DNA from: a virus
Taxonomy: Duplodnaviria; Caudoviricetes
DNA length: 64,000 nucleotides
Virus record (IMG/VR): IMGVR_UViG_2909979649_000004
Strand: one strand, 5' to 3'
Each line of letters begins with the position of its first letter. The stretch's first letter is position 1. A program made the position numbers and the translations under genes. Positions 9,276 to 27,483 of this stretch are shown piece by piece. The notes below the pieces were generated by a model, which did not search any database, was not told the DNA's origin, and worked only from the letters and a program-made list of their open reading frames with translations.

Positions 9276-9758
9276 ATGCTCAATAAATTATGGGAAAAAT
9301 TTATATCGGTAACCGGTAGCGGCTTAGTCGATAAAATTATTGATGTAGCGAAAACGTATTTTCCGCCGGACTTATCGCCGGAGCAGCAAATGCAATTTAA
9401 AATAGCGTGCCGAAAACTACAAATCGAACATGAAAACCAAACTCAAAAACTGATTAATCAAGCAGAAAAACAATTAACCCAACGGATTAGCCAGTTAGAA
9501 GGCACGGCCAGTGATTTATTGGCGTTGCCTGTTGTTGGTCGGGTGTTGTTATTTCTGCGCGGTGCTCAGCGACCCATATGGGGTTTTGCCACGTTGTACC
9601 TGGATTGGTGTTGGTTTGCCTCTTGGCAGCTGAGCGAACAACAAGAAACCGCCTTAACCGTTATTAATGTGTTAGTGCTGGGTTTCTTGTTTGGTGAACG
9701 GGCCATGAAAAATGTCATGCCCTTACTAAAGCAGGTAACACGGAATGCTATTCGATAA
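9276..9758 (+). CDS. Holin-like membrane protein
   Basis: RPIWGF and VLGFLFGER TM motifs next to the endolysin. Confidence 0.65.
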   Translation: MLNKLWEKFISVTGSGLVDKIIDVAKTYFPPDLSPEQQMQFKIACRKLQIEHENQTQKLINQAEKQLTQRISQLEGTASDLLALPVVGRVLLFLRGAQRPIWGFATLYLDWCWFASWQLSEQQETALTVINVLVLGFLFGERAMKNVMPLLKQVTRNAIR

Positions 9759-10041
9759 CCATCCTGAGTTACGGCATAAGCTCTCTCTGACGTTAGTCAG
9801 TTTGTTTTTTACCAATTTGATTGGTTGGAATATTTATATTTACAACAAAATCCTCAGTAATGAGCGGGCGTTGTTTAATCAAAAAACCTGGATTACCGAA
9901 GAGTTTGCTAAAAAATCCACCATCAAGCGACTAGAAACCAAAATCGATAATAAATTTGAGGCAATGACCCAACGGTTTGATGATATCAACAAGCGCCTGG
10001 ATTTTATTATCTTATTAAACAAAGGAAAAAAAGAACCATGA
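9745..10041 (+). CDS. Single-TM coiled-coil protein of the lysis module
   Basis: One hydrophobic segment plus RLETKID coiled coil. Confidence 0.55.
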   Translation: MLFDNHPELRHKLSLTLVSLFFTNLIGWNIYIYNKILSNERALFNQKTWITEEFAKKSTIKRLETKIDNKFEAMTQRFDDINKRLDFIILLNKGKKEP

Positions 10042-10322
10042 GCAATAACACTTTTACTGTCGAAGTCGGCGACCAAGCGTTTACCTTTACGATTACGGTC
10101 GATGATTACAGTAGTTTTATTAATAAATTCAGCGAAAAAAATAAAATTGCACCGGCTTATAACTTTTGTATGCAAACGGTTTCGAAGGACGATAAACCCG
10201 CGCTAAAAGAATTATTGGCCCATCCCAGTGTAGCCCCGCAAATTGCGAGCGCGCTAATGGAGCAATACGTACCGCAGTTAAATATTGTGGTAAAGCCAGT
10301 GAGGCCGTCGGCGAGCAATTAA
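10038..10322 (+). CDS. Tail assembly chaperone
   Basis: NKIAPAYNF motif; precedes tape measure gene. Confidence 0.8.
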   Translation: MSNNTFTVEVGDQAFTFTITVDDYSSFINKFSEKNKIAPAYNFCMQTVSKDDKPALKELLAHPSVAPQIASALMEQYVPQLNIVVKPVRPSASN

Positions 10323-10486
10323 AGGAGAATTCTTTATTGCAACTGATGTGGCTGGCGAAAAAACATTTTCCACACCAGCCCGTCACCGCCGACACCATGG
10401 GTGCCGCTTTATTTTTTGAACAGCAATATTGGGAGCATATGCAAATCGCGGTTGCCAATGGCATCAGTCAAGCATTTAAGGGTTAA
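10292..10486 (+). CDS. -1 frame extension of the tail assembly chaperone (E'-like)
   Basis: Open -1 frame ending WEHMQIAVANGISQAFKG; candidate shift site G GTA AAG at 10289-10295. Confidence 0.65.
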   Translation, partial: KASEAVGEQLKENSLLQLMWLAKKHFPHQPVTADTMGAALFFEQQYWEHMQIAVANGISQAFKG

Positions 10487-10497
10487 TCAATTTAATT

Positions 10498-12510: not shown

Positions 12511-12836
12511 TGGACTATATCGATTTATTAATTAATGAAAATGATCTGGTGTTAACTATAGCCGGTGAACCACAATTAACCAGTGACCGAGCCAGTATTG
12601 CCCAAGATATTCAACATGCGATCCGGGAAAGCGGTTTATTAGTGGACATGATCGGCGAGCGCCACCCGGAACAACGCCAACGGCTGATTCAGGAACTCAC
12701 CTTACTGGTAGAAGACGACGAGCGATTAATACCCGGCACCATTATTTTTCATGAATCCCGCCAAGGCCGTTATTTATTGACGGCGGATACTTACGACTAC
12801 GGTCCTGTGGAAATTCAGAATGCGCTCGCTGTTTAA
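12510..12836 (+). CDS. Baseplate protein, DUF2590-like
   Basis: YIDLLI, SIAQDIQHAIRESGL, DERLIPGT motifs. Confidence 0.85.
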   Translation: MDYIDLLINENDLVLTIAGEPQLTSDRASIAQDIQHAIRESGLLVDMIGERHPEQRQRLIQELTLLVEDDERLIPGTIIFHESRQGRYLLTADTYDYGPVEIQNALAV

Positions 12837-13992
12837 ACGCCTGGTGGCGGATGCCAATATACCCACTGAGGAAACCCAATTAAAAAGCCGGTTTAAACAA
12901 CTGGCGAAAGAACAGGGTAGTCAACTCAGTAATGACAGTCGCTATTCGCCATTCTGGCGGATTATTACCGCGTTAGTCATTCGACCAGTGTTGTGGTTAA
13001 TGGATTTACTGATTGACCAGGTGTTACCGAATGCGTTTTTACAAACGGCCCGAGGCCGCTATTTGGATTTATTAGCCTGGGCGGTACACGTTGAACGTAA
13101 ACCCGCGACACAAGCTGAAGGCATAATCGAATTTCACCGAGCCAGTAGCGATTTAGCGGTGACAATTCCCGCGAATATGGCCATTCAATCGGTGGCCATT
13201 AATGGCACCGTGTATGAAGTCAGAACCACGACAGAAACTACCTTTGCAGCGGGTGAGTTAATCGCTACAGCGCCAGTAAAAGCGACACAAGCCGGTAAAG
13301 CCTTTAACCTGGCACCGGGTTATTATGCGATTTTACCCGAGCCAATTAATGGCATAATCCAGGTGACGAACCCTGACGGGTGGTTGACGACACCCGGTGC
13401 TGATGAAGAAGCCGACGAGGCGTTACGCTGGCGGGCCCGTAATCAATTTGGGGCGGTCAATCAGTGGCATACGGATAGTGTCTACCGCAGCTTAATTGCG
13501 CAGTTTGCGGGGATTGATAGCCGCCATATTTATTTTGAGCATAACGCACCCCGGGGGCCGGGCACCGCGAATGCCTTTATTTTATTTGCGGCCGATGCCC
13601 CTGCAGATGAGTACCTAGAAAAAATAAATCAGTATATTCAGGCGGAAGGTAATCACGGTCATGGGGATGACCTGCAGGTATTTGCCCTACCGGAAAAATC
13701 ATTCGACATTACATTGAATGTGTGGCCTAACCCATTTTTAACAGAAGACAATAAACAGCAATTAAAAACCAATATTGAACACTTTATTAAAACGGCTTTT
13801 CGGGAAAGCACCACCGATAATTATCAACCTACCCAAGTCAGCCCACGCAGCCGGTTTAGTTTTTCCAAACTCACCCAGGAGTTACACCGACAATTTAGTG
13901 AGATTGATTCGTTACAGTTTGAGAATACCGATATTGTCAGCGAGTTATGGTTACCGCAAATCAAGACATTGACGGTGATGCTGCATGATTAA
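12820..13992 (+). CDS. Baseplate J-like protein
   Basis: SPFWRII, PGADEE, APRGPGTANA, GNHGHGDD motifs. Confidence 0.9.
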   Translation: MRSLFKRLVADANIPTEETQLKSRFKQLAKEQGSQLSNDSRYSPFWRIITALVIRPVLWLMDLLIDQVLPNAFLQTARGRYLDLLAWAVHVERKPATQAEGIIEFHRASSDLAVTIPANMAIQSVAINGTVYEVRTTTETTFAAGELIATAPVKATQAGKAFNLAPGYYAILPEPINGIIQVTNPDGWLTTPGADEEADEALRWRARNQFGAVNQWHTDSVYRSLIAQFAGIDSRHIYFEHNAPRGPGTANAFILFAADAPADEYLEKINQYIQAEGNHGHGDDLQVFALPEKSFDITLNVWPNPFLTEDNKQQLKTNIEHFIKTAFRESTTDNYQPTQVSPRSRFSFSKLTQELHRQFSEIDSLQFENTDIVSELWLPQIKTLTVMLHD

Positions 13993-14581
13993 ATTAAAGT
14001 TACCCTTTTGGTTAGGTGGATCAGAGTTAAATAAATTAACCCGCATATGTGAACAGTTTTATGGTGAGGTGGAAAGCTGGTTACGTTGGCCTTTATCGCA
14101 ATTAGACCCATCCACCTGCAGCGAAGGGGTTTTAAATTTACTCGCCTGGCAACGGGATATTAGCCGGTTTAAAGGCGAGCCCTTAAGCCTATTTCGAAAG
14201 CGGGTGCAGTATGCCTTTATTAATAATGTCGATGCCGGTTCAACGGCTGGGGTTAAACGGATACTCGAACGGTTAGGCGTGGGCTATTGTGAGGTAGATG
14301 AACGTACCCCGGGATTAGATTGGGACATTATCACCTTAAAATTATCTGATAGTCAGCTCGCCCAACACCCCGAATTACTCAGCATTATTTTACAGATGTA
14401 TGGCCGCACCTGTCGGCGTTATGTGTTTAGCACCATTACCCCAGTGAAGTTATTTATTGGCGTTAATGAATTTAGTCATGACCAGGTGACCCAAGTTGCA
14501 CAATTACATAATACCGCCCATTTATACGGCCAAAGTCAATTACTAGACCACTCACAACAAGTGTTATGTGCTCAGTTATAA
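13985..14581 (+). CDS. Baseplate/tail protein, gpI-like
   Basis: LLAWQRDI, DAGSTAG, YGRTCRRY motifs. Confidence 0.85.
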   Translation: MIKLKLPFWLGGSELNKLTRICEQFYGEVESWLRWPLSQLDPSTCSEGVLNLLAWQRDISRFKGEPLSLFRKRVQYAFINNVDAGSTAGVKRILERLGVGYCEVDERTPGLDWDIITLKLSDSQLAQHPELLSIILQMYGRTCRRYVFSTITPVKLFIGVNEFSHDQVTQVAQLHNTAHLYGQSQLLDHSQQVLCAQL

Positions 14582-14611
14582 AGAAAAATTCAGAAATAAA
14601 AGGAAAATAAT

Positions 14612-16327
14612 ATGCCTGTCATTACCCATGCCGGTGAACGGCTTATCGCTGAAAAACAAGGGATGCAAAGCCCTTTAATTATTAAACACTTTGTGTTGGC
14701 CAATGTGCCGGATTTAACTGATACCGACCCAGAGAACCGGCACGAGCTGTTGCCGAGTGATGATTTAATTCAATACCAAGCCCCAGTGACGCAAGCCGGG
14801 TTTATTAATCCGAATGCGGTGGTGTATTCGTTAGTGATGGACACCCGTATTGGTGACTTTGAATTTAACTGGTTGGGTTTGGTGGCAGAGGATAATACTT
14901 TAGTCGCCGTCAGTTATGTACCGAAACAGTGGAAACGCAAAACCCAGGGTAGCCAAGCGGGAAACAGTTTAACCCGTAATTTTATGTTGGCGTTTAGTGG
15001 TGCTCAGGATATTACCCAAATCGATGTTAACGCCGACACCTGGCAAATTGATTTCAGTGCTCGACTCAATGGCATTGATGAACGACAACGGTTGGCCAAT
15101 CTGGATTTATACGGTCATGACGTATTTTTTAGTGACGGCTTTAAAGTCATTCGACAGGATGCCCACTATTTAATTACGGCGGGTGTCGGCTATGTGGGTG
15201 GTGTTCGGGTTACCACCGAAAAACATTTAATTAAAGTCACCGAACAGCCCTCTGCCATTTGGGTGGATGTATGCCAACAAGGCAGTGTCACCAGTAATAT
15301 TGAAACGGTAGTGGCGTTTAATGTCGTGGCTGAATTATCGGATTATGTTGACCGATTTGAACGCCCACACTGGGTAGCCAAACTCGCGGAGATTAATAGC
15401 CAAGGGGAAGTGATTGACACACGACGAGTCACGGACGGTTTTGCCGAGCATTTTATTAGTGATAATCCCCATAACCAGTATTTAACCAAAGCCTTGGCAT
15501 TACAATTACCTATAATGCCGGAAGTGTTAACCCCCACGAATCGGTTAGCGGTCATTATTGAGCATCAACAACTCACTATTGTGAAAAATCAGGTGATTCG
15601 TTGGCGGGGTTGGCAGGATTTTAATACGTCAGGTTATTCTGAAAATCAGAGACAGTTTTTTATTGATTCAGATAAAACCTATCATTTGCGATGGTCGCCA
15701 CTAGGTGGGTTTGATTTAAAGGATTTAAATGATACTCCCTATAATCCCAATAGTTTGGTTGAATATGACTTATCCTTTGATACCACCTATGACGATGTGT
15801 TGTTAGGAAAAATTGAGGCCGGTGATTATTACCCTTCCATTATCGCTACTAAACGTTTATATCGTCCAAAAATTTCCGGCAATGGTACGCTATGGTTGCC
15901 GCTAGGTTATCGTGATCGTTCTTTTCGTTTATTAGTCACAATTAGAAATCAACTGCAGCAGGGAAATGTTTTGTTTAAATCAGTTGATAAAGCACATACT
16001 GCATTATTTACCATGAGAGGAAACAATCATGGTGACAACATGAATGTTGAATTAGATAGTGATGATGAATTTTGGTTGACAAGCAATAATAGTAACGGTG
16101 AAGTCAGTATTAGTACATTAACCGGCGATATCATTGATGACTTGCTGTATATGCAAAACCATCAAAGCGAATATGTGAAAAAAATTCAACCAGGCAATAC
16201 GATTGATGGTGATGAAGAGCTTTTTTCGATGGGAATAAAGCGTTTAACGACTGAAGACGTTCAAAAAGGGTTACCACTGGATTATGCAAATATTGAAAGT
16301 GCTTCAATCGTATTTGAAGTGTTTTAA
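14612..16327 (+). CDS. Tail fibre / receptor-binding protein
   Basis: HP1-type N-terminus (VVYSL, GDFEFNWLGL, TWQIDF); C-terminal half homologous to the fibre at 56621-57937. Confidence 0.9.
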   Translation: MPVITHAGERLIAEKQGMQSPLIIKHFVLANVPDLTDTDPENRHELLPSDDLIQYQAPVTQAGFINPNAVVYSLVMDTRIGDFEFNWLGLVAEDNTLVAVSYVPKQWKRKTQGSQAGNSLTRNFMLAFSGAQDITQIDVNADTWQIDFSARLNGIDERQRLANLDLYGHDVFFSDGFKVIRQDAHYLITAGVGYVGGVRVTTEKHLIKVTEQPSAIWVDVCQQGSVTSNIETVVAFNVVAELSDYVDRFERPHWVAKLAEINSQGEVIDTRRVTDGFAEHFISDNPHNQYLTKALALQLPIMPEVLTPTNRLAVIIEHQQLTIVKNQVIRWRGWQDFNTSGYSENQRQFFIDSDKTYHLRWSPLGGFDLKDLNDTPYNPNSLVEYDLSFDTTYDDVLLGKIEAGDYYPSIIATKRLYRPKISGNGTLWLPLGYRDRSFRLLVTIRNQLQQGNVLFKSVDKAHTALFTMRGNNHGDNMNVELDSDDEFWLTSNNSNGEVSISTLTGDIIDDLLYMQNHQSEYVKKIQPGNTIDGDEELFSMGIKRLTTEDVQKGLPLDYANIESASIVFEVF

Positions 16328-16329
16328 TC

Positions 16330-17208
16330 ATGAAGGCTATCCATATTAAAACCCCACCCACGCTGGGAAATGTAAAAGAAAAACAAGCATCAGTAATAGT
16401 AAAGGCCAACGCCCCATTACAGGCGTCGGCCTCTAAAGTAATGCTCTTACACGATAATTATATTGAAAATAAAAATAAAGCTTCCGCTCAGACTATTTTG
16501 GACTTAAGAGTCGATTTTAATAAACATTTACAGAACAATATCCATTGTTGTGTTGTGCACCCTTACCAACATACGGTAGGTGAAGGGGAGGGACACCACC
16601 GGTATTTATCGGCACCCAATGCGATTAAAGCGTTGCAGCAAAAATACCAGGATCAACGGGACCAGCAGCAGCCACACAACAACCAGGCAGCAATTGTGGT
16701 ATTAATCACCGCCTCGCATTTAACGCCGTTCTATCAAACCCTAACGGCATTTAATCAGGTGATGCCAGTACCGGAGTTGCAACAACTGACCCGGCGGGTA
16801 AAAGCGTTAATTGAGTTGGAAACGACTAAATGGGAGCAGCCCAAAGCACCCCAGATGCCGTATTGGCGACAATTGCAATTGACCCAGTGGCAAAGCCCAC
16901 AAAATTATTTAAAGCAACTGGGAGCAACTCAGGCAGCGATAGAAGCGATGGCCGATGATCAATCACCGAAAGCCATCTTAACCGAGCTGATTAATAAAAA
17001 ACGCCAATACCTCAATCAGTTGTATGTCGATTGGCAACAAACCACCCAAGCACTACAAAATGTAGTAGGGCAGTATTTGGCGGGAAATATCAGCCAGCAG
17101 TTAACCCAACTGAACGCGCCGGGTCATGACCAGGTATTAACGGCGGGTGTCTTACTCTCGGGTACGGCAGACGCCTTACACACGCTCAAGGAAACCTTTA
17201 ACTTATGA
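16330..17208 (+). CDS. HP1-type tail-region protein
   Basis: VHPYQHTVG, YLSAPNAI motifs; synteny after the fibre. Confidence 0.7.
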   Translation: MKAIHIKTPPTLGNVKEKQASVIVKANAPLQASASKVMLLHDNYIENKNKASAQTILDLRVDFNKHLQNNIHCCVVHPYQHTVGEGEGHHRYLSAPNAIKALQQKYQDQRDQQQPHNNQAAIVVLITASHLTPFYQTLTAFNQVMPVPELQQLTRRVKALIELETTKWEQPKAPQMPYWRQLQLTQWQSPQNYLKQLGATQAAIEAMADDQSPKAILTELINKKRQYLNQLYVDWQQTTQALQNVVGQYLAGNISQQLTQLNAPGHDQVLTAGVLLSGTADALHTLKETFNL

Positions 17209-17783
17209 TGATTGGTGACTATCAGGTCCAAGGTAGCAACCTGCAGGTGGTGGGGGGGTTACGGATCAGCAATGAAGAATTAAGTGGTGCCAGTAGCGCC
17301 ACCGATCGTGCCCATAAAGGGTTTAAACCCAAAACCCTAACCGTGTCGCTGCAGATCAAACAAAGCCAGCCCGAGCAATTAACCCGGTTGATTGAGTTAG
17401 CCGAGGGTGTGGATAAAGCCGGTAAACAAACGGTTTACACGCTGGTGGATAATACCGCGAAAGCGATGAATATCCGCCAGGTGCAGTTTAACGACAATTT
17501 GAGTGCGCGAGAATCCGCCGATAAACGCTTATGGCAGGTGCAATTTACCTTAGCGGAATACCGCTCTGTACCGGAAAAGGTTGAGCAACGCCAACCGAAA
17601 AAAGACCCAAAAAAACAGCAAGCCGATGGCCAGCCTATTGGGTCAGATAATCAAGCAAGCAACGAACCGGCATTAACCGAGTTTGAGCAGCTGTTAAAAC
17701 AAATAGACGAGCAAATAGGCCCCCGTGAAACTGAACAGCCAGCTGATGATCAATCAGCAGATAATACCGCTAGTGCGGCATGA
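17205..17783 (+). CDS. HP1-type baseplate-region protein
   Basis: KGFKPKTLTVS, WQVQFTLAEYRSVPEKVE motifs. Confidence 0.7.
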   Translation: MMIGDYQVQGSNLQVVGGLRISNEELSGASSATDRAHKGFKPKTLTVSLQIKQSQPEQLTRLIELAEGVDKAGKQTVYTLVDNTAKAMNIRQVQFNDNLSARESADKRLWQVQFTLAEYRSVPEKVEQRQPKKDPKKQQADGQPIGSDNQASNEPALTEFEQLLKQIDEQIGPRETEQPADDQSADNTASAA

Positions 17784-18408
17784 TATCCGCTTAGCCTTAA
17801 ATACCCCTGGTCGTGCCACCTTTGTGGTACGGCCTAAAGTCCCATTAACAGCAAAAACCGTAGTAAAAATAGCCATGGGTTATGGTGATAATTTACAGCA
17901 GGTATTTGTAGGCTATATCGAAAAAATCACCCCAGTGGATAAACACCAACAGCAATTATTCTGCAGGGAATTAACCGGGATTTTGCATTACCCGTTACCC
18001 ATGAGTTTACGGCATGTGCATTTAAATGAGGTATTAAACCAAATCGCCCAGCAAACCCGACTGACGTTTATTACTCCTGAACAAGCCTACTGCACTACTA
18101 AAATCCCTTATTTTTACAGCCTGAATAATGGGCTGTTTGCCATGAGTTCAATCGCGCAGGCATTTGCTATTGATGATTATTGTTGGCAGCAACAAGGGAA
18201 TGGACAGGTGTATGTGGGGAGTTGGCAGCACAGTTATTGGCAGGATAAACCGATAAAAATCCCTGAACAATTTTTTATTAACCATCAATCCCATAACAGT
18301 GCGCAAATTGCAGCAATACCCCAAATACGCCCTGGGGTGTTATTAGACGATGGCAGCCGGATAAAACAAACCCAAATTAATAACAATCAAATGGTCATAT
18401 CATGGTAG
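17725..18408 (+). CDS. HP1-type baseplate hub-like protein
   Basis: PGRATF, FCRE, WQQQGNGQVYVGSW motifs. Confidence 0.7.
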   Translation: MKLNSQLMINQQIIPLVRHDIRLALNTPGRATFVVRPKVPLTAKTVVKIAMGYGDNLQQVFVGYIEKITPVDKHQQQLFCRELTGILHYPLPMSLRHVHLNEVLNQIAQQTRLTFITPEQAYCTTKIPYFYSLNNGLFAMSSIAQAFAIDDYCWQQQGNGQVYVGSWQHSYWQDKPIKIPEQFFINHQSHNSAQIAAIPQIRPGVLLDDGSRIKQTQINNNQMVISW

Positions 18409-19352
18409 AAGCCATTAAACGCATTGTATTAAGTTTATTTCCAGAACTGGCGGGTAATTATCATTTACCCCGCTTTGGTCGGGTGGTGGCCATCAGTGAT
18501 TTACCCAAACAAGGGAGTCTCTGTGATGAGTTTAGGCCTCACTATGCGGTGGATATTGAGGTATTAAACGCACAAGGCAAGCCGGATAAAAAATTACCGA
18601 TATTATCGAGTGTAACCGTACCCATGGCACTAGCAGGCCAGGAAAAAGGCTTTTATGGCTTACCGGAAGTGGGTACTTGGGTGGTGGTCGGGTTTGCATA
18701 TGGTCTGCCTAATAAGCCATTCATACAACAGTTATTACCGAATGGCTTATCACTCCCCAACCTTGAGCAAAAAGAGCAGCGTTGGCAGCCTAATCCGTCA
18801 AGCTACCAACGTTGCGATCACAAGGGCGCCTGGGAACGAACCTCAGACAGTAGTATCAGGGATGAGAGCTTAAGTTATCAGCTGGAAACCCTACACCAGG
18901 AAACCACAGCCCAAACCAGCCAAACGACAGTTACCGAGCACAGCACTGAAACGATTGGCGGCACCAAAGCCATTGAGGCAATGGGAGCTCTTAAACTCCA
19001 TTCCGGTGGTACAGCTGAATTAGCCGCTATTGATAATTTAAAGGTAGCTACAGGCAATGATAGTCATACTGTCGTAGGTAACGATATGCAAGAGCATATC
19101 AACGGGATTAAACACAGCCTGGCCAAACTGAAGCAAATCGCCCAAGTCAAAGACGGAGGCAAAGTCTGGTTGGGGAATGAAAGTGACAATGTGTTGCAAC
19201 TGCTGTCGGAATTTATGGCGGTGGTTGAGCAAGCGTTTTTAGACTTATCCACCCATGGCCATACGCCTGCTGGACCAACTAATAAACATAGCCTGATACA
19301 GCAGGCGGGTACAGTTAATCAGCAGAATACTCATCTTAAAACAATGCTTTAA
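18402..19352 (+). CDS. Baseplate spike/gpV-like protein, last tail gene
   Basis: FRPHYAVD, PEVGTWVVVGFAYG OB-fold, beta repeats, HxH tip motif. Confidence 0.75.
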   Translation: MVEAIKRIVLSLFPELAGNYHLPRFGRVVAISDLPKQGSLCDEFRPHYAVDIEVLNAQGKPDKKLPILSSVTVPMALAGQEKGFYGLPEVGTWVVVGFAYGLPNKPFIQQLLPNGLSLPNLEQKEQRWQPNPSSYQRCDHKGAWERTSDSSIRDESLSYQLETLHQETTAQTSQTTVTEHSTETIGGTKAIEAMGALKLHSGGTAELAAIDNLKVATGNDSHTVVGNDMQEHINGIKHSLAKLKQIAQVKDGGKVWLGNESDNVLQLLSEFMAVVEQAFLDLSTHGHTPAGPTNKHSLIQQAGTVNQQNTHLKTML

Positions 19353-19365
19353 GAGAAATAATAAT

Positions 19366-19484
19366 CTAGTAGTCTAACAATAGAGTCTTTTCACCTTGAC
19401 TTATGCTGTATCTCTAAGAAAGAGCCTGTATATCAAAGCAGACAGGCATCACCTGTTGCCTTGAGTAGTGAAAGAAGCACTAGT
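19366..19484. repeat. Structured non-coding repeat, copy 1
   Basis: 111 bp match to 40446-40556 with 4 mismatches; bounded by CTAGT on both sides. Confidence 0.9.
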
Positions 19485-19582
19485 AATGAAAAATACAAAC
19501 GATAGGCATGTGACCTAGAACTTGCTACAGGAGCAAACTTTATCTGTAGCAAAGCCCTAGGAGACTGATTTGTAAAGGGTGT

Positions 19583-19619
19583 ACTGGTTAGCTTTTATAC
19601 AAAAAGTTAACCAGTTTTT
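19583..19619. terminator. Intrinsic terminator between the tail operon and the convergent ORF
   Basis: ACTGGTTAGCTTTT/AAAAGTTAACCAGT stem followed by T run. Confidence 0.6.
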
Positions 19620-19634
19620 AGAGTAATGAGCTGG

Positions 19635-20126
19635 TTAAATACCTGTTCTTACTTCTTTTGAAGAGCTTTCATTATTTGGTTCTATAAAATAGCGCTTAAC
19701 CTCATTCATTTTATCTACTAATGCCTGCTTTTTATTCATAGTTTCTCGATGATTAAACCTAATGCCTGTCTTACTGTTTACTCTATTAAGGTTTTGGGTA
19801 AACGATTCAATTGCATGGTTAAGCTTATAAATAGTTTTTTTATCAAGATAACTGAGATTGGATAAAGTGAAGTTAGCCTCAGATATAATCTCTGGCAACA
19901 TCTCTAGCAAATGGTATTCAGATGATCTGTGCTTAAGAGTCTGTCTTTCTTTAAGCCAAAGTTCCAATTCTTCGATTTCTTTTATAGTGAGCTTCGCGGC
20001 CACGTGAGGAGCGACCTGAGTTAAATGACTATCAAATGATGCCACTACTTTTTCACTCAATATATTATCTTTACTCACTTGCTCGCGAATGCATTGGACT
20101 CGTGAACCAATAATTTTAAAGTACAT
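19635..20126 (-). CDS. Hypothetical protein divergent from the Hsp20 cluster
   Basis: 163-aa ORF with AAGGAG ribosome-binding site; no recognised family. Confidence 0.7.
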   Translation of the reverse strand: MYFKIIGSRVQCIREQVSKDNILSEKVVASFDSHLTQVAPHVAAKLTIKEIEELELWLKERQTLKHRSSEYHLLEMLPEIISEANFTLSNLSYLDKKTIYKLNHAIESFTQNLNRVNSKTGIRFNHRETMNKKQALVDKMNEVKRYFIEPNNESSSKEVRTGI

Positions 20127-20436
20127 AATAATGCTCCTTTATTAATGAATAATTAAAAGGTAAATAAAAGTTTAATAAAAAAGCAGTTTTTTTGATTTAG
20201 GGATTGTAAATTTTCATATGATTAATAAGCCACTTACAATCAACAAAAACTAGCGCTGATTAGATATGGTTCTGTATATAATGTGTACAGGGTATTGGTA
20301 GTAATCAAAAACACCCTGCTGATGTAAATAATATTAATTTTGACTTAGGCTTTGTCAAGTCCTAAGTAAGCTGCAATTTTATAAATATAATTTATATGTA
20401 AAAAACTGCTTATTAAAATAAATTATTTATCTGGGT

Positions 20437-20467
20437 GTTGAACTCTTTAAAATAGAACCCATCATAT
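20437..20467 (+). promoter_or_regulatory. Putative sigma32 (RpoH) promoter
   Basis: GTTGAA-N15-CCCATCATAT, close to CTTGAA...CCCCATNT, upstream of an ibpA-like gene. Confidence 0.6.
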
Positions 20468-20519
20468 GTATTGAAAAAAGGAGTTACTTTTAAATCTACA
20501 ACTGTAAATTGACTGTATG

Positions 20520-20553
20520 ATCTCGTATTGCTTCTAATGGAGGATATGAAATG
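20520..20553 (+). promoter_or_regulatory. ROSE-like RNA thermometer hairpin
   Basis: TATTGCT (UUGCU motif at 20528-20532) pairs with SD AGGATA (20541-20546) leaving a bulged G. Confidence 0.65.
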
Positions 20554-21015
20554 ACTACACTAGATTTATCTCCCTTATATCGTAGCAGCATAGGGTTTGA
20601 TCAATTAGCATCAGTATTTGACACAGCTTTTCGCAGTGAGCAAACTGGTTACCCCCCTTATAATATCGAAACAATTGATGAAAACCACTATGGTATAACA
20701 CTAGCTGTAGCTGGCTTCGAAGAGCGTGAGTTAAGCATTCAGGTAGAGCAAGGAGTGCTCACTGTTAGTGGCAAAAAAAATAAAAATAATGAATCTAAAA
20801 AGTTCCTTTATCAAGGAATTGCTACTCGTTCATTTGAACGAAAATTTAATTTAGCTGACCATGTTGAAGTGACTGATGCCAGTCTAAGTAATGGGTTACT
20901 TAGCATTAGTTTGGTTAGAGAAGTGCCTGAGGCAATGAAACCAAAAACTATCCCTATTAGTCAGGGGAACCATAACGTTCTAGAGCATAAAAAAAAGGAG
21001 GGAAAAGTAGCCTAA
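20551..21015 (+). CDS. ibpA: Small heat-shock protein, IbpA-type
   Basis: DLSPLYRSSIGFD, GYPPYNIE, LAVAGF, YQGIATRSFERKF, NGLLSI. Confidence 0.95.
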   Translation: MTTLDLSPLYRSSIGFDQLASVFDTAFRSEQTGYPPYNIETIDENHYGITLAVAGFEERELSIQVEQGVLTVSGKKNKNNESKKFLYQGIATRSFERKFNLADHVEVTDASLSNGLLSISLVREVPEAMKPKTIPISQGNHNVLEHKKKEGKVA

Positions 21016-21083
21016 GTAAAAAGCCATAATAATCTTAAGCGTCTAGCGTCTTCTTTTAAGGAGGTAAAATATTAACACATAAA

Positions 21084-21107
21084 AGGTGGGTGATTACTCG
21101 CCCACCT
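21084..21107. terminator. Hairpin after ibpA
   Basis: AGGTGGGTGA/TCGCCCACCT inverted repeat. Confidence 0.45.
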
Positions 21108-21227
21108 AGCTATGATGGATAAGTGTAATGATTTCTCTTTAATAGTATTTCAAATCTTGCATTGTAAGCACTACTTAAAACTCATCATTAGTTTTTGAAT
21201 AATCGTGATTTTAAGGAGGTGATACTA

Positions 21228-21815
21228 GTGTTCGACTTAAAAAACTATAAATTCTTATACTTAATTATTAGTTTGTGCATCACTATCATTGGCGTATTAG
21301 CCTTTACTACATGGAGATTGTCCTCAGAGCTTAAAACTGTGGAAGGTAATACCCCTATAGCGTCAAGTGACATAATTAAACCGCTTCCAGCACCTTGGCC
21401 TAAAGATATAGATCCATGGTTAGATAGCTGGGACCCATCTGGTAATTTTTCAGCACTGCAAAAGCGTATGGATGAAATGATGCAAGTGATGTTACCAGAT
21501 ATGTCCTTCTTTAATATGCAGGGCTTTGGTTACTCTAGCTCTAATCCTAAGATCAGAATGGATGAAACAGATACTGAATATAGGGTCACTGTATCAGTTC
21601 CAGAAGCCCAGAATATTGAAGTTAACACAGAGCTAAAGAACAATATATTAACTATCAATGGTAAAGTAAAACAACAGGAAAGCAGTCAGCAAAGTAAGCT
21701 TTTTTATACAAGTCAGTTTTCTCAGTCTGTTACTTTACTTGAACCAGTAGATAGCACAAATATGAGGGTTGACAATAAAAATCATAAAGTGGTTATTACG
21801 ATTCAAAAAACATAA
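21228..21815 (+). CDS. Hsp20/alpha-crystallin protein with N-terminal membrane anchor
   Basis: GTG start after AAGGAGGT; hydrophobic FLYLIISLCITIIGVLAF; C-terminal ETDTEYRVTVSVP, ILTINGK, FSQSVTL. Confidence 0.8.
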   Translation: MFDLKNYKFLYLIISLCITIIGVLAFTTWRLSSELKTVEGNTPIASSDIIKPLPAPWPKDIDPWLDSWDPSGNFSALQKRMDEMMQVMLPDMSFFNMQGFGYSSSNPKIRMDETDTEYRVTVSVPEAQNIEVNTELKNNILTINGKVKQQESSQQSKLFYTSQFSQSVTLLEPVDSTNMRVDNKNHKVVITIQKT

Positions 21816-21955
21816 AACTATTTCAGCAAAATAAACTGTAAAAATATGACAGTTTTAAAGTATAAGTATTTACCTATAAGGAGGATAAAAAATCTGATAT
21901 TTAATAGTATGCCTTGGCTTTAATAGATTTAACAATTGTCAAAGGAGACCATGTC

Positions 21956-22501
21956 ATGAATGTAAAAGACTTAATCCCTTGGAACTGGCTAAAAAATGAA
22001 GAAGAGAGGGAAAATAAACAGTTAAAAGCAAGTAATATCTATGATCCAACGGCAAATCCATTGGTACAATTTCATAGAGAAGTTGACCGACTATTTGACA
22101 ACATGTTCAAAGGAGTTGGCTTTCCTGGCTTCTCAGAAGGATAGTCAAAGCTACCAAATAGTTTGTTTAAACCTAGCGTAGATATTAGCGCAAAGGATAT
22201 AGAATATCTAATTAGCGTGGAGGTACCTGGTGTTGAAGAAAAAGATATTAAACTTGAAATAAAGGATCATACACTCGTTATTAGTGGTGAAAAGAAACAA
22301 GAAAAGGAAGACAAAGAGGAGCATCATTACCGAGTTGAGCGCAGCTATGGCTGTTTTCAAAGGGTTTTAGCGATTCCAGAAGATGCAAGCACTGAAGAAA
22401 TTAATGCATCATTTAAGAATGGTGTTTTATCCATTACATTACCTAGAAGAGAATTACCAAATAGAAAGGCTAAACAAATAGAAATTAAGAAAGCTAGTTA
22501 A
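21956..22501 (+). pseudogene. Hsp20 gene interrupted by an in-frame TAG (22142-22144)
   Basis: Track ORFs 21914-22144 and 22163-22501 share a frame; LIPWNW...REVDRLFD and PSVDI...ERSYGCFQR...FKNGVLSI form one Hsp20. Confidence 0.85.
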
Positions 22502-22509
22502 AAGTATTT

Positions 22510-22561
22510 GGGTCATGCTTGTTGCAGTTCAATTGCATTCACTTGCAACAAGACACGACCC
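22510..22561. terminator. Long hairpin after the Hsp20 cluster
   Basis: GGGTCATGCTTGTTGCA/TGCAACAAGACACGACCC inverted repeat. Confidence 0.45.
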
Positions 22562-22861
22562 GATGTGTATTATTAACAGGCTTCCAAGGCCCTCTATGCT
22601 TGTCGTCAGTCCAAGCACAGCAGATAATGTATGTTATCAAGATGGGGCTTGTTCTCAGTATTGTCTTACAGTTTGTTATCTGTATTTAGTAACTCATTGC
22701 TTTTCTTTCTTTAATATTACCCCACTACTTCATTAACACCTACCTTTACTTATGTCAGATTATTTTCTTATTTGTGTCAGAGACTGGTTATCATCACTTC
22801 CATTCTGCAGGCGCCTGGGAGTGTGCCGGCAGAGCCACCAGAATCCAAAAGGCTGGAAAAA

Positions 22862-22930
22862 AGCACTCATCCTCCCCACCTGCGGGTTTTGCGTCATAAA
22901 AGTTTTGTGTAATTGAAGTTATGGCAATGC
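22862..22930. other. Probable cos (packaging) region of prophage 1
   Basis: GCACTCATCCTCCCCACCTGCGGG resembles the reverse complement of P2 cos (GTGCTTTCCCCGCCTCGCC); position after the tail genes is HP1-like. Confidence 0.55.
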
Positions 22931-23040
22931 TTAGTAGCTAAGCTTTATTGTATAAGGTCTTTAAGAGTTAATTGTTGTTTTCTCAAAATGAAAAATTATC
23001 TTAGTTTAAGCAAAAAAATACATTTTCAGTGCAAATTATT

Positions 23041-23155
23041 TATGTTAAGAAAACAAAAGTATTGTCGTATTCAATATAGGTAGCATTTTTAGTTTTAGGC
23101 TGTAGTGTCTAACCCTAATTTCTTTTCTTACTTTCTCAAGTAATGGACATGCCAT
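23041..23155 (-). pseudogene. intI: Integron integrase 5' fragment (frameshifted, truncated)
   Basis: GAGGTG SD; MACPLLEKVRKEIRVRHYSLK, then after frameshifts YLY*IRQYFCF, matching the IntI N-terminal RHYSxxTExAYxxWI pattern. Confidence 0.8.
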
Positions 23156-23199
23156 AATCACCTCTACATACATCACATAGCTATTAAGGTGAAATGATG

Positions 23200-23215
23200 C
23201 TGTATATAAATACAG
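23200..23215. promoter_or_regulatory. LexA (SOS) box upstream of the intI fragment
   Basis: CTGTATATAAATACAG fits CTGT-N8-ACAG; about 45 nt upstream of the intI ATG. Confidence 0.9.
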
Positions 23216-23269
23216 CGTTAATGGATGAACGTCAAAGTATTATTTGATTTACAAACAATTATATGTGAA

Positions 23270-23401
23270 TCAGTTAGTTGGGTGAGTCCTATCAACATTA
23301 TTCTAGTAATAAGTTTGTGCCTTGGTTAAAATATACTCGATTGTTATACGTCAATGCGACGTAGTACTTTGCGTCAGAGTGACGCTCATTAATAGTTAGT
23401 A
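23270..23401 (+). other. Candidate attI region
   Basis: Non-coding stretch between intI promoter and first cassette; candidate cores GTTATAC (23343) and GTTAGTA (23395). Confidence 0.45.
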
Positions 23402-23406
23402 CCACT

Positions 23407-23781
23407 ATGAGCGCAGAAAACGCATTAATAATATCTAGTGAGGAGATTTCAAAGGATTCCTATATCGAGTTCTTTGAGACTTTGGGTTGCCATTGATATT
23501 CTTGACACAAGGATGAAGCCATTGTTCTCGATGAGTACACACAAGTTGGTGTGTGCCTTATGGACTCAAGCTACATCGAGATGTTTGATGACGATGACTT
23601 AAAAAAACTACAGAATGCTTTGGGTGCTCCGCCTAAAACGTTCTTTGAAGTAAACCGTACAAAAGCAGACGACCCGAATGAGCTATATCTGGCTGTAGCC
23701 AAGAAGATGGCAAAGATGTGGCCTGTGGCTGTTCGGGATACACATGAAAAAATGGTGCCTTATAGTGAACTCATGTCGTAA
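23407..23781 (+). pseudogene. Integron cassette gene of unknown function with two in-frame TGA stops
   Basis: ATG 23407 is in frame with track ORF 23551-23781; TGA at 23494 and 23503; attC starts 6 nt after the stop. Confidence 0.7.
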
Positions 23782-23786
23782 ATTAA

Positions 23787-23847
23787 AGCTAACAAGCGCG
23801 TTAATTAGAGCGCTCGAAGGGTTGCGTCTATTACGCGGGCGTTATGT
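23787..23847 (+). other. attC site (59-base element), 61 nt
   Basis: AGCTAAC...GTTATGT cores; GCGT[T]AAT[T]AGA pairs with TCTATTACGC leaving two extrahelical bases; unpaired spacer AAGC/GGGC. Confidence 0.85.
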
Positions 23848-23903
23848 TTAGTTGAGCTTCATTGTTCTAAGTCCACTTCCTACAAAAAATCAGAGTATAA
23901 ATT

Positions 23904-24776
23904 ATGGACAATATTGTGCGAGAGGTCCTGAAAACAAAAATTATGGGGCTCAAAGCGACAGCCTTCCAAGATGCATTGGATAGAATTTATCTTAGCATTT
24001 ACGGTGAGGGAAACTTCCAGAGAGTAAAGCAGAAGCACGATGGTGGTTCGGATGGAATCATAAATGGTGAAACGGTTTTGGCAGTGTATGCTCCAGAAAA
24101 ATATATCTTGAATGATTTTAAGAGGAAGGTTAGAGCAGATTTTGAGTCTTACACGAAAAACTGGGAAGCTACACACAGCAAGTGGGAGGTTGTAACCAAT
24201 TTGGAATCGACCGCACAAATGATACAGTTTGTGAACATGCTTAAGAATGGTGCATCTCTTATATGTATTGATGGTTTGTTGCAGAAAATTGGTAAGCAGA
24301 CGTGGACGGTGAAAACGGCGATTTTTAGAGCGCTAGATATCCCTGACCATTACTTATCTAACGATGTGATCTCAACAGTAATTGAAGACTTAATTCAAAT
24401 AAGCACCCAAGATGATCCTTTTGAGCCCTATGAAAAACCAGCCTATATACAAGATAAAATCGAACTAAATGTTAGTGAGGAACACGTGGCTACGTTTATG
24501 GATGAGTATGAAGACTCGCTGGCCATTTTTCCTATAGTATCGACGGTCGTCAAGTCAAAATCGAACGCTGATGTTGCTGCTATAAGAAACAAAGTAAGGT
24601 CCACTTATACATCCTTGTCTGGGAAATTTGAAAAGCGGCTTGATGAGCTTGTAAAGATTATGTGTCAAAGTAAGTCAATAGATGATTACTATAGTCATAA
24701 TATGCGCATCGTAATGGTATATTTTTTTGAACAGTGTCTGTTTGGTAAAAAGCCAAAATCAGAGGTTAATAGATGA
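23904..24776 (+). CDS. lmuA: Lamassu/ABC-three-component effector: Mrr-like nuclease plus C-terminal domain
   Basis: AFQD...DGGSDG...AVYAP restriction-fold N-terminus; KIELN and YFFEQCLFG C-terminal motifs. Confidence 0.75.
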   Translation: MDNIVREVLKTKIMGLKATAFQDALDRIYLSIYGEGNFQRVKQKHDGGSDGIINGETVLAVYAPEKYILNDFKRKVRADFESYTKNWEATHSKWEVVTNLESTAQMIQFVNMLKNGASLICIDGLLQKIGKQTWTVKTAIFRALDIPDHYLSNDVISTVIEDLIQISTQDDPFEPYEKPAYIQDKIELNVSEEHVATFMDEYEDSLAIFPIVSTVVKSKSNADVAAIRNKVRSTYTSLSGKFEKRLDELVKIMCQSKSIDDYYSHNMRIVMVYFFEQCLFGKKPKSEVNR

Positions 24777-25006
24777 TTAATGCGCATGTCGAAATGGATT
24801 TAAATCAGCATGTTTCAGTTGTTTCCGCAAAAATTATTGATTTGGTTGAAGCTGGAAACGAAGTGATTTTAGAAACTTTAATGAGGAAGTTTCTAAAAAA
24901 ATATGAGTTCTATACCCCTGATCAGTTTATGGAAGGGCTGACCTTCTTGTTCTCTATAGATTGTTTGAATGTTCAGGACTACAGGGTGATATTAAAAAAT
25001 GTTTAA
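24773..25006 (+). CDS. lmuC: Lamassu small middle component
   Basis: 77 aa, overlaps both neighbours, LTFLFSID wHTH-like motif. Confidence 0.7.
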   Translation: MINAHVEMDLNQHVSVVSAKIIDLVEAGNEVILETLMRKFLKKYEFYTPDQFMEGLTFLFSIDCLNVQDYRVILKNV

Positions 25007-26759
25007 GCTCATTGCATTGTCTTCGCCATCAGGTCTTTTTAAAGATATTGTATTTAGGGATGGTCTGAACATAATTCTCGGAAGGTATTCAAGATCGGGA
25101 AAAGATATCAATGGAATTGGAAAAACTACAATAATTAACCTTATCGATTACTGTCTTTTAGCGGATGGTGTCAAGTCTGAGCTATTTAAAGAAAAGTATG
25201 ATTTTCTGAGGCATGAACGTATTCGGCTCGACTTCATGCTTGGTGGTAAGAAATATTCAATTGAACGAGGCTTTGAGGATAAGAAAAAGGTATTTTTCAC
25301 AACAAATGGAGAGGATGCTAAGGAGTTCATTGATAGTGATCTTAGATTGATACTAGGCTCAGAAATGGGGAAGGGGCAGGCTGGTATATATGAACCAATT
25401 TGGTTTAGGACGCTGATGTCGTTTTTTGTACAGAATGACCATAATTTTTTGCAAAGAGATGCAACGAATGTTCTGAAATTTACTATTGGTAAGCGCCAAC
25501 CTGAGCTTTTCACCTATATTTTTTTAATTTTAGGCATTGATAATAGTCTTATATGGGATTTTGACAATAGCAGTGTTGAATTGAAGAGATTGCGAGCAGA
25601 TCAAACGCGCATTAATAAACAAATAGTAGAGCAAACAGGAAAATCAATAGAGGACTTTAGAGGCGAGTGTGACTCTGTTGCAAGGAAAATTGATAAGCTA
25701 GAAGAGGGATTGGATAACTATCAATTCGATGATAATAGCGCCGCCCTCGAAGATAAGCTGCAAGCACTCAGTGAACAAATATCAGGTTTAAATAAAAAGT
25801 ATATATATCTAGTAAGCAAGCACAGAGATATTCAAGAGAGCCTCCAGATTGATGTCGATGTAGACCCTGATGAGGTTTCTGGATTTTACTCGGAAATTCA
25901 TTCTGAGTTTTCTAGCTTTATAAGAAAGAGTCTCAATGAAGTTATTGAGTTTAGGAAGGAAATAGCTACAAATAGACGAAAATTTCTTAAGGAACGCGAG
26001 GCTCAATACCAAGGGCAATTGAGCGAGATAAAGAATAAACTAATTTCACTTGAAGCAGAGCGATCTAGGATTTTTAAAATGCTAGATGAAAAATCCGCAT
26101 TTGATGCACTAAAGTCTGCTTATACTAATCTAATCGAGGAGAAAGCTCACCTTTCTAGTCAGTTTTCTTATATTGAGCAATTGGATCATATAGAAGAATC
26201 AATTGCCAGCAAGAAATCATTGGTTAGCTCTACAGTTGCAAAACTTGTGGCGAAGAAGAATGAAAACATACAAACGGTAGATGAAATAAAAAGTATATTT
26301 CTAGATTTGGTAGAAGGTTCGGTAGATATTGATAGTTCAGATGTAAGTCCGTATTTCAATATTGAATTCAAATCAATTCAAAACAGTCCAATCAAGCTAT
26401 CGCTAGAAGTACCTAGAGGTAGTTCTTTAGGTAAGGGGCGATTCAAAATATTAGCTTTTGATCTCACTGTATTTATCACTTCTGTTTTAAGAAAGACCGA
26501 ATTCCCAAGCTTTTTAATTCATGATGGTGTTTTCCATGCGATAGCACACAAAACACGAATTAAATTTCTTAATTACATCAACAGTAAACTCGGTGAATTG
26601 GGTGGCGCTCAATATATTATTACTGTAAACGAGGATGAAATCATATTTCCTGAAAGTGAAGGCGTTTCAATAGATTTGGACTTTAAATTGGAAGATAAAA
26701 CATTAATAACTCTTGAAGACAATCCTGATCATATGTTTTTAGGCAAAGAGTTTGGATGA
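24999..26759 (+). CDS. lmuB: Lamassu SMC-like ABC ATPase (DUF2326-type)
   Basis: GLNIILG, NGIGKTT Walker A, coiled coil, AFD, FLIHDG Walker B, QYIIT. Confidence 0.85.
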   Translation: MFKLIALSSPSGLFKDIVFRDGLNIILGRYSRSGKDINGIGKTTIINLIDYCLLADGVKSELFKEKYDFLRHERIRLDFMLGGKKYSIERGFEDKKKVFFTTNGEDAKEFIDSDLRLILGSEMGKGQAGIYEPIWFRTLMSFFVQNDHNFLQRDATNVLKFTIGKRQPELFTYIFLILGIDNSLIWDFDNSSVELKRLRADQTRINKQIVEQTGKSIEDFRGECDSVARKIDKLEEGLDNYQFDDNSAALEDKLQALSEQISGLNKKYIYLVSKHRDIQESLQIDVDVDPDEVSGFYSEIHSEFSSFIRKSLNEVIEFRKEIATNRRKFLKEREAQYQGQLSEIKNKLISLEAERSRIFKMLDEKSAFDALKSAYTNLIEEKAHLSSQFSYIEQLDHIEESIASKKSLVSSTVAKLVAKKNENIQTVDEIKSIFLDLVEGSVDIDSSDVSPYFNIEFKSIQNSPIKLSLEVPRGSSLGKGRFKILAFDLTVFITSVLRKTEFPSFLIHDGVFHAIAHKTRIKFLNYINSKLGELGGAQYIITVNEDEIIFPESEGVSIDLDFKLEDKTLITLEDNPDHMFLGKEFG

Positions 26760-26781
26760 AATTGAGGCGACAACTATTCTG

Positions 26782-26842
26782 ACATAAGGGGCTGGCATTT
26801 CTTACCTCAAAGCAATTCAATCGCATTCTTTAGTTGTTAGGT
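26782..26842 (+). other. Degenerate attC closing the Lamassu cassette
   Basis: ACATAAG is a 6/7 inverse of the cassette-opening GTTATGT; the 61-nt span ends in GTTAGGT; internal pairing is poor. Confidence 0.45.
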
Positions 26843-27211: not shown

Positions 27212-27333
27212 TAACGAATTTAGCTTCAAGCACTGAAGGTATTAAGTGGTGTAACTTTTGCCTTTAGTGATTAACCAAATTGTCACGAAGTTTTCATACT
27301 GACGAGCAAATCTTTTCCTTTGATTTGGGTTTT

Positions 27334-27421
27334 GAGTGCGAAACGAGTGCGAAAATTGTCCCCAATTACACACAAAACCTCACCCTGTAAGGTTTTCAGG
27401 TAATGTTATAAGTAATTGATT
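27334..27421. promoter_or_regulatory. Phage att arm: integrase arm-type repeats and IHF site
   Basis: GAGTGCGAAA twice (27334, 27345); TAAGTAATTGATT at 27409-27421 is the reverse of WATCAANNNNTTR. Confidence 0.6.
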
Positions 27422-27457
27422 TTAAAGGGATTTTAGGAAATTTAAGGTGAGTGGAAT

Positions 27458-27483
27458 TGGTGGAGGCGGCGGGAATTGAACCC
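27458..27483 (-). other. att core: 3'-terminal 26 nt of a tmRNA (or tRNA-Ala-like) gene
   Basis: Reverse complement GGGTTCAATTCCCGCCGCCTCCACCA gives T loop, acceptor strand and CCA; the rest of the gene is absent. Confidence 0.85.

Follow-up and report, generated by a model that had tools for sequence, protein, structure and literature searches.

An integrase-less integron head with a Lamassu-like cassette, probably carried as accessory DNA by an HP1-type prophage

P2-like phages and P4 satellites reportedly harbour defence hotspots (work attributed to Rousset and colleagues, 2022). Parts of integrons on temperate phages, and integron cassettes with a defence role, have already been described: functional Vibrio phages, among them V. 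anguillarum p16 and p42, carry pieces of chromosomal integrons, the Shewanella prophage M16-3 contains a complete integron as well as a CALIN (clustered attC sites without an integrase), both headed by an attI site (Qi et al. 2023, Front Microbiol, PMC9892861), and cassettes of both sedentary and mobile integrons encode anti-phage systems (bioRxiv 10.1101/2024.07.02.601686; 10.1101/2024.07.02.601719). Here we describe a stretch of 64,000 nucleotides (IMG/VR record IMGVR_UViG_2909979649_000004; G000:C1:1336249-1400248 in a genome of 6.69 Mb), hereafter the window, in which an integron head without integrase and two cassettes appear to lie between the cos site and the right attachment site (attR) of E2, a prophage of the HP1/P2 type. 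We consider it probable that this head is accessory DNA of a temperate HP1-type prophage inserted at ssrA, a reading to which we attach an inferred defence role and history.

The cos-attR interval of E2 spans 4.4 kb, compared with 250 nucleotides (nt) between cos and attP in HP1, and is occupied, in this order, by cos, 121 nt of a leftward intI 5' end, a LexA box, attI, cassette 1, cassette 2, a gene for an RRM protein and attR. The features, in window coordinates, are:

22838..22912 (+): cos of prophage E2, aligned to the annotated HP1 cos, predicted cleavage near 22868
23035..23155 (-): intI remnant, first ~41 codons with one frameshift and one stop (tblastn with the IntI of genome G005)
23200..23215 (no strand): LexA box CTGTATATAAATACAG in the former intI promoter, the sole CTGT-N8-ACAG in 64 kb
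23216..23399 (+): attI region with ACGTCA/TGACG palindromes, 66-77% identical to the attI beside the intact G005 intI
23396..23841 (+): cassette 1 (translation; attC ends and fold)
23788-23847: attC of cassette 1, 60 nt, with the ends GCTAACAAG ... GCGTTATGT
23842..26790 (+): cassette 2, with an intact three-gene operon (genes 23904-26759; PADLOC, Pfam, structure model, operon relatives)
23904-24776 (+): effector, 290 amino acids (aa), PD-(D/E)xK-like N-domain and helical C-domain
24773-25006 (+): small middle protein, 77 aa, overlapping both neighbours
24999-26759 (+): SMC-like ABC ATPase, 586 aa
26791..27330 (+): gene for an RRM RNA-binding protein (26936-27211; Pfam RRM_1, 3e-23) with its upstream region, the last before attR
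27331..27480 (+): attR, with two GTGCGAAA arm-type repeats (27338-27360) in its P arm, followed by a 23-nt core

The integron head was identified by comparison with the intact intI of a sister genus (G005:C18:44570-45511), which encodes 320 aa and matches TIGR02249 with 481 bits. In tblastn, residues 1-21 of this IntI matched 23155-23093 at 18 of 21 positions (86%) and residues 24-41 matched 23088-23035 at 11 of 18 (61%), in a shifted frame with one stop (E 5e-8 in a search of the window, 5e-6 for the genome as a whole). A comparison of 23041-23400 with an intact intI/attI, as suggested by the original prediction, aligned 23039-23399, inverted, to the first ~100 nt of the G005 intI plus its upstream region with 66% identity. 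No intact IntI was found in the genome of E2, where the best TIGR02249 match (75.6 bits, cut-off 265) is Xer-like. The LexA box is situated 45 nt upstream of the ATG of the intI remnant, the same distance as before the intact G005 intI, and is perfect only in these two sequences, being degraded in the three other heads described below; for the loose LexA pattern alone, 0.6 chance occurrences are expected. The last part of the attI region (23298-23399) is 77% identical to that of G005, and the match closes in CATTAATAGTTAG in both. The core GTTAG lies at 23395-23399, with a putative crossover at G23395|T23396, and homology among the window, two copies in the remnant E1 (see below), the head G001:C76 and G005 ends right after GTTA. 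The attI adjoins, and is divergent from, the intI remnant and has a GTT core at its end, as in an integron; with ~41 codons left of a full-length intI, the integron is not complete.

Several palindromes of the type ACGTCA-N2-3-(G)TGACG(T) within attI (23340-23390; L029 16300-16480) are kept in the window, G001 and the intact G005 integron and are candidate protein-binding sites. A 74-117-nt repeat ending at 23399 was considered as the attC of this family and rejected, since it adjoins the intact intI in G005 and hence is attI; only the last 32 nt of this attI repeat recur in an array on G005:C15. In that array (L030, G005:C15:25700-30900) repeats are spaced at 600-900 bp and close with 32 nt (TTGCGTCAGAGTGACGTTCATTAATAGTTAG) that are the same as at the right end of attI; their left halves differ and carry a CTAAC/ATAAC box. 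These repeats are possibly the sedentary-integron attC type of the family.

Cassette 1 has a frame of 124 codons (23407-23781) interrupted by two in-frame TGA, with a longest open piece of 76 aa (23551-23781) and no family match in profile searches including Pfam, and its gene is likely a pseudogene. The ends of its attC (GCTAAC...GTTATGT) match those of attC sites behind the intact G005 integron and in G001:C76, where small one-gene cassettes are separated by sites of the form (G/C)CTAACAA...GCGTTA(G/T)G, and the site folds as a hairpin of R-box stem, spacer and L-box stem. On this comparative footing, namely its likeness to the sites of relatives, we regard the attC as genuine. A CALIN has at least two attC sites and no nearby intI. 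The block contains one complete attC and one cut to its first box; with its attI and intI stump it fits a degraded integron better.

Cassette 2 opens at the crossover within GTTATGT (23841-47) and contains three genes whose architecture resembles that of Lamassu/ABC-3C systems. The ATPase is an SMC/Rad50-like ABC ATPase with a coiled coil, as is LmuB, and matches the PADLOC model PDC-M68B over its full length (5.3e-57), LmuB over residues 15-542 (7.7e-13) and, in Pfam, DUF2326 (74 bits, cut-off 28.7) and AAA_23 (28.3 bits). As the PDC-M68B match far outscores that to LmuB, the operon is best named ABC-3C/Lamassu-like. An AlphaFold model of the effector, built with 26 homologues, reached a predicted local distance difference test score (pLDDT) of 89.5; in this predicted structure, residues 1-134 superpose on restriction-endonuclease-type folds (Z 10.7-7.6), namely AF1548 (Z 10.7), R.BspD6I (Z 10.2), the FokI cleavage domain (Z 9.8) and the Can2, Card1, Cdn1 and Avs4 nucleases (Z 9.5-7.6). 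For the PD-(D/E)xK fold of this N-domain, Z was 10.7-8.5. The solved LmuA 9nxx gave only a weak Foldseek row for the effector. Residues invariant in the homologue alignment include D46, D50, E65, K73 and K75. No family match was obtained for the 77-aa middle protein in Pfam, PADLOC and further searches, nor a match to the LmuC model; its length is kept in Vibrio, Shewanella and Methylophaga, and the component lengths of 290, 77 and 586 aa are conserved among operon relatives.

The left boundary of cassette 2 recurs in other genera. A Methylophaga metagenome-assembled genome has the operon at 79% nucleotide identity; homology starts exactly at GTTATGT, and the attC immediately preceding the operon there is a textbook site with an extrahelical G and is part of an unrelated cassette. 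On a contig of Vibrio sp., the operon has the same left boundary and is surrounded by many small co-oriented genes, as in a cassette array. It is also present in Shewanella algae and Endozoicomonas elysicola, and a scan of the genome contigs with the ATPase returned one relative only. At the right end, past the stop codon (26757-59), ACATAAG at 26782-26788 matches the reverse complement of the opening GTTATGT at six of seven positions, for which reason we take it as the first box of the cassette's own attC. From 26791 follows the upstream region of the RRM-protein gene, which recurs elsewhere in the genome; this attC is hence truncated, and the stretch after the operon forms no hairpin (z +0.8). 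With its 3' attC lost, cassette 2 would not be excisable as a unit.

Much of what had been read from the sequence of this block was borne out. The original prediction of a leftward intI 5' fragment, a perfect LexA box, an attI-like stretch, a cassette, an attC and a defence operon in canonical integron order is upheld by homology to the bona fide integron of G005, the intI fragment being the remnant at 23035-23155 and not the 43-aa GTG open reading frame (ORF) at 23045-23176. Three parts required revision: the rightward small gene is present as a frame and is not intact, the attC proposed with 61 nt measures 60 nt, and the operon between GTTATGT and ACATAAG, described as Lamassu, has its three genes and both boxes and is better called ABC-3C/Lamassu-like.

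E2 has a size of ~36.8 kb (G000:C1:1326914-1363728) and is inserted in the 3' end of ssrA. At 22838-22912 the sequence aligns across the annotated end/start (cosR|cosL) of HP1 (NC_001697), with GGAAAATCCACT|TCCTTCCCCACC against GGAAAAAAGCACTCATCC-TCCCCACC at the junction, and a 31-nt stretch of this cos has a 93.5% match in the Vibrio HP1-like phage PQ189358, just past its orf35 homologues. HP1 has the order orf35, cos, attP (251-694) and int, and E2 keeps orf35 homologues, cos, att and int. The ~75-nt cos core occurs in seven copies in the genome, one of them behind the tail genes of a second related prophage (946-966 kb), at 1.76 kb past the last tail gene and with no integron behind it; only one copy lies within the bounds of E2. 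A search of IMG/VR with the exact cos-core pattern gave no match.

The attR core TGGTGGAGGCGGCGGGAATTGAA (27458-27480) is the reverse complement of the tmRNA 3' end, as seen in an alignment of five core copies. The true ssrA is located at G000:C1:1406954-1407324 (window-equivalent 70.7-71.1 kb, minus strand), and copies of its final 23 nt are present at 27458-27480 and, adjoining the phage integrase on the left, at G000:C1:~1326891-1326913. GTGCGAA repeats are also found on the P' arm, the right flank of this left core beside the integrase, and neighbouring ssrA elements carry GTGTGAAT arm repeats instead of GTGCGAAA. The repeats at both ends of E2 would fit arm-type integrase sites of one element, and no copy of the tmRNA core was found between 19.35 and 27.4 kb. 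Because the cos matches HP1 and the core and arm repeats recur beside the phage integrase, we place the integron block between cos and attR of one prophage; judged from its sequence, the left core through 27480 is a single 36.8-kb element whose cos-attR interval the block fills. This agrees with the earlier proposal of a cos-like site at 22.87 kb and an att arm at 27.33 kb enclosing the block within a prophage: the former aligns across the HP1 cleavage point at the HP1 position, and the latter combines GTGCGAAA repeats with the tmRNA-derived core, both also present at the other prophage end.

A comparison of the cos-att interval across relatives, likewise proposed beforehand, covered four integron heads in two genomes: that of the window, that of E1, G001:C76 and G001:C136. 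All four have the same junction, from the cos flank to intI codon ~41, and the first cassette differs in each; in the three with a complete attI, homology stops at GTTA, the attI crossover. E1, a remnant to the left of the prophage, consists of an orf35 3' end, three cargo genes, cos, intI remnant, decayed LexA box, attI, cassettes, an RRM fragment and core, is 73-76% identical to the window series and has a YcxB-like cassette and two unknowns; its RRM locus, too, precedes the att core. G001:C76 is followed by five classical cassettes, and G001:C136 is cut off within attI. Decayed orf35 homologues, 77.6% identical to window 17852-19352, lie 70 nt from the end of the intact G005 intI, and as intI there adjoins orf35 homologues, the link between phage arm and integron predates the split of the two genera. 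Capture may have gone either way, with the phage acquiring the head of a chromosomal integron or with intI being lost from a complete integron already on the phage.

Further integron-like pieces were noted around these heads. E1 has a second attI copy (L028 9229-9453; G000:C1:1325477-1325701), 92% identical to the window attI and fused to the RRM upstream region via a shared 15-nt stretch (GTGA(G/T)TCCTATCA(A/G)C); two more cassettes and the RRM 3' end follow, forming a mini-array inside the RRM gene. A block at L028 255-4841 with a Cas4-like exonuclease, a helicase, three small genes and a second integrase (393 aa) abuts the E1 orf35 fragment and is 86-88% identical to two loci of G002. At G000:C1:920639-920991 and 928120-928466 (L038), two cos cores are followed ~230 nt later by the left part of an attI-like sequence, with no intI remnant, and behind them come series of small ORFs in the same orientation, where at least one site resembles attC (L038 ~10405-10470). 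The second, unrelated prophage may likewise carry integron-derived cargo, as hinted by two pieces near its right end, just beyond the window (G000:C1:1402191-1402247 and 1400361-1400418): one resembles an attC with complementary arms (TAACAAGTAAAGG...CTTTAGGCGTTATG) and the other a fragment of attI.

Several results weigh against the interpretation of an integron head and defence cassette within E2. The fold energy of the cassette 1 attC is not significant (z -1.0 to -1.3), and its end motif TAACAA...CGTTA[GT]G is not enriched in contig C1 (39 matches, 42-68 in shuffles), so that support for the site is comparative; of two structural attC scans, the stricter one missed the known site and the other returned 32 real and 38 shuffled matches per 2 Mb. 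A consensus scan for the cassette promoter Pc found no rightward sigma-70-like site in the attI region, and fewer sites overall than in shuffles. In the effector, CTD10, the effector domain of ABC-3C systems, scores 21.3 bits, below the Pfam cut-off of 28.1, and the PADLOC LmuA model gave no match. Both G001 heads have non-phage surroundings within the DNA examined, and one element of the ssrA array has mismatched arm types; because this array is scrambled elsewhere, matching arms are good and not absolute proof of a single element. E2 may also be a defective prophage, and its 36.8 kb exceed the 32.4 kb of HP1, although Vibrio relatives reach 34-37.6 kb.

Of the other explanations, one holds that a chromosomal integron remnant merely lies beside the prophage; in this case the phage would end on the right either at cos or just past its tail genes (~19.4 kb), and the att-like repeat (27.4 kb) would be part of another element of the ssrA array. 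The at least five stacked elements with reshuffled arms in the ssrA region, the lack of adjoining phage genes at the G001 heads and the fall in G+C content at 19.4 kb (from ~45% to 33-37% over 19.4-31 kb) speak for it, yet the HP1-type cos, sitting past the last tail gene and before attP, requires the phage to reach at least 22.9 kb, the interval 19.35-27.4 kb is devoid of tmRNA core copies, and the arm repeats at 27.34 kb match those beside the E2 integrase. Moreover, an older resident element would be expected to be separated from ssrA by the phage instead of lying between the two, and we regard this explanation as improbable. We give little credence to a second one, in which ~19.4-27.4 kb is a decayed, separate cos-bearing satellite or island that came to be stacked between phage and ssrA and no longer has an integrase or a left att of its own. 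Several remnants in the genome with an orf35 3' fragment, cargo and cos (C1 926.6, 932.1, 1259.7 and 1321.1 kb) can be read as a family of small cos elements, but with a single cos copy in the bounds of E2 a satellite would leave the prophage without a cos of its own, the related full prophage (~946-968 kb) has the same cos 1.76 kb past its last tail gene, and neither integrase nor att core is found between the tail genes and the block. That the integron likeness is a coincidence and the operon an ordinary phage moron is hardly credible: fold energy and motif counts of the attC are not significant alone, but it is contradicted by the similarity to the N-terminus of IntI (E 5e-6 over the genome), by homologous, collinear sequence shared with an intact intI/attI over 360 nt and by the operon boundary at an attC core in other genera.

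For the integron head as accessory DNA of E2, the following course can be envisaged. A single event joined the phage cos flank to intI codon ~41, as suggested by the presence of that junction in all four heads, and later either recombination with resident integrons or an IntI acting in trans would have exchanged the cassettes behind attI. After cleavage at cos, the virion chromosome would have the integron block at its left end. In the lysogen, the ABC-3C operon would be expressed and would serve as a defence encoded by the prophage. If it works like Lamassu, the PD-(D/E)xK nuclease effector may be held inactive by the SMC-like ATPase and its 77-aa partner and released once foreign DNA ends or replication intermediates are present, aborting infection by other phages; expression, defence activity and mechanism of the operon are inferred. 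In the present host the platform would be frozen, since an intact IntI is lacking and the defence cassette has no 3' recombination site. Of the earlier suggestion that a host IntI could load or swap cassettes in trans, possible insertion at attI and loss of cassette 1 remain as the only moves. It is a tentative and rather doubtful extension that an HP1-like phage lineage of this bacterial family uses the integrase-less attI as a cargo slot, with host IntIs loading and swapping cassettes in trans and the phage shuttling them, entire defence systems among them, between the chromosomal integrons of its various hosts; if so, the different cassette sets behind the shared cos/intI junction would be a trace of such traffic.

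The remainder of E2 and its surroundings comprise the following features:

1..19352 (+): structural half of E2 (PHROGs: portal, terminase, major head, sheath, tape measure, baseplate)
112-2894 (leftward): portal and large terminase (PHROGs)
17725-19352: two homologues of the HP1 orf35 baseplate family, the last tail genes
19353..22837 (+): cargo between the last tail gene and cos (Pfam HSP20 matches; repeat copies by blastn)
19635-20126 (-): 163-aa gene without assigned family in this cargo
20551-21015, 21195-21815 and, as a split third copy, 21914-22501: three Hsp20 genes in this cargo (Pfam HSP20)
G000:C1:1326914-1336248, left of the window: early half of E2 with int, repressor and replication genes (L028)
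window 27403-27483; G000:C1:1254256-1254389, 1275786-1275935, 1326554-1326913 and 1406898-1406979: core regions of the ssrA stack

E2 has P2-family head and tail modules with portal and terminase leftward and the capsid, sheath, tape measure and baseplate genes rightward, as is typical of HP1-type phages (Peduoviridae), and its terminase is 51-58% identical to those of Pseudomonas and Vibrio P2/HP1-like phages. The early genes encode an integrase (384 aa), a CI-like repressor and O-like and P-like replication proteins. Directly after the last tail gene lies a 111-nt repeat resembling miniature inverted-repeat transposable elements (19366-19476), with at least nine chromosomal copies of 93-98% identity, followed by a second repeat of ~80 nt (19535-19626) that is present on plasmid-sized contigs too. 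The third Hsp20 gene is broken into pieces of 76 and 112 aa, and the pair at 21303-22501 is 74% identical to a chromosomal locus in G002. The second, unrelated prophage begins at ~27.5 kb, right of E2. Upstream of ssrA, a tandem stack of at least five ssrA-targeting elements extends over ~200 kb; all end in the same 23-nt core, and their arm repeats fall into two or three types, namely GTGCGAAA, GTGTGAAT and, in the second prophage, a third. The att core is flanked by two RRM genes facing each other, the one ending E2 (26844-27213) and the other starting the next prophage (27729-28099); they are 91% identical along 372 nt, and more copies are located at C1 1204 kb and 1254.6 kb. A blastn search of 22900-27300 against 50,697 phage records gave no match, the sole IMG/VR match of the E2 baseplate protein was a contig that is apparently this genome's own second prophage, Rfam found no family over 19.3-31 kb except a sub-threshold tmRNA 3'-end fragment, and a sequencing-run search returned only two metagenomes (5-6% word share), with no run of the strain itself and no RNA data.

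If the prophage is active, attI, cassettes and a complete Lamassu-like system would be packaged beside the left cohesive end. The locus would then link integron cassette exchange, prophage-encoded defence and transduction, which are usually separate fields, and offers a concrete, testable case of a phage as a vehicle of integron cassettes without an integrase. The four heads with one junction, different cargo and an intact relative in a sister genus form a natural series for cassette turnover, and the operon is a compact and taxonomically widespread ABC-3C variant (Vibrio, Shewanella, Methylophaga, Endozoicomonas) for functional study. New in E2 is the combination of integron pieces and a defence cassette on an HP1-type phage, with a defined cos-attP position, a shared deletion junction and evidence of cargo turnover.

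Like the phages of Qi et al. (PMC9892861), E2 is a temperate phage with attI, attC-bounded cassettes and an intI remnant of the sedentary chromosomal integron type, and the duplicated attI of the left remnant E1 recalls M16-3. Unlike in those phages, the intI of E2 is reduced to 41 codons at a cos-flank junction common to four heads, the block lies in the cos-attP interval of an HP1-type phage, and one cassette is a predicted multigene defence system, with other cassettes on related arms. As in the integron-defence preprints of 2024, a predicted defence system forms a cassette, and a cassette array of Vibrio contains this operon too; in contrast to them, cassette 2 (2.9 kb) has three genes, exceeds in size the streamlined systems emphasised there and is located on a phage rather than in a chromosomal or plasmid integron. 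With Lamassu (LmuA/LmuB/LmuC, DdmABC) and ABC-3C (Krishnan, Burroughs and Aravind 2020), the operon shares an ATPase matching the LmuB and DUF2326 models and would also share the order effector, small protein and SMC-like ABC ATPase and an effector composed of a nuclease domain and a putative helical coupling domain. It differs from Lamassu in that its best match is the uncharacterised PADLOC candidate PDC-M68B, the LmuA and LmuC models do not match, and the nuclease of the effector is compact and FokI/Mrr-like, not Cap4. The layout orf35, cos, attP and int and the homologous cos are those of HP1 (NC_001697), whereas E2 has 4.4 kb between cos and att and a further 3.5 kb of cargo before cos. 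Finally, this variable accessory slot in a P2-family prophage holds a predicted anti-phage system, as do the hotspots of P2-like phages and P4 satellites, but it is bounded by an integron attI instead of conserved phage genes and would offer a site-specific way to exchange cargo.

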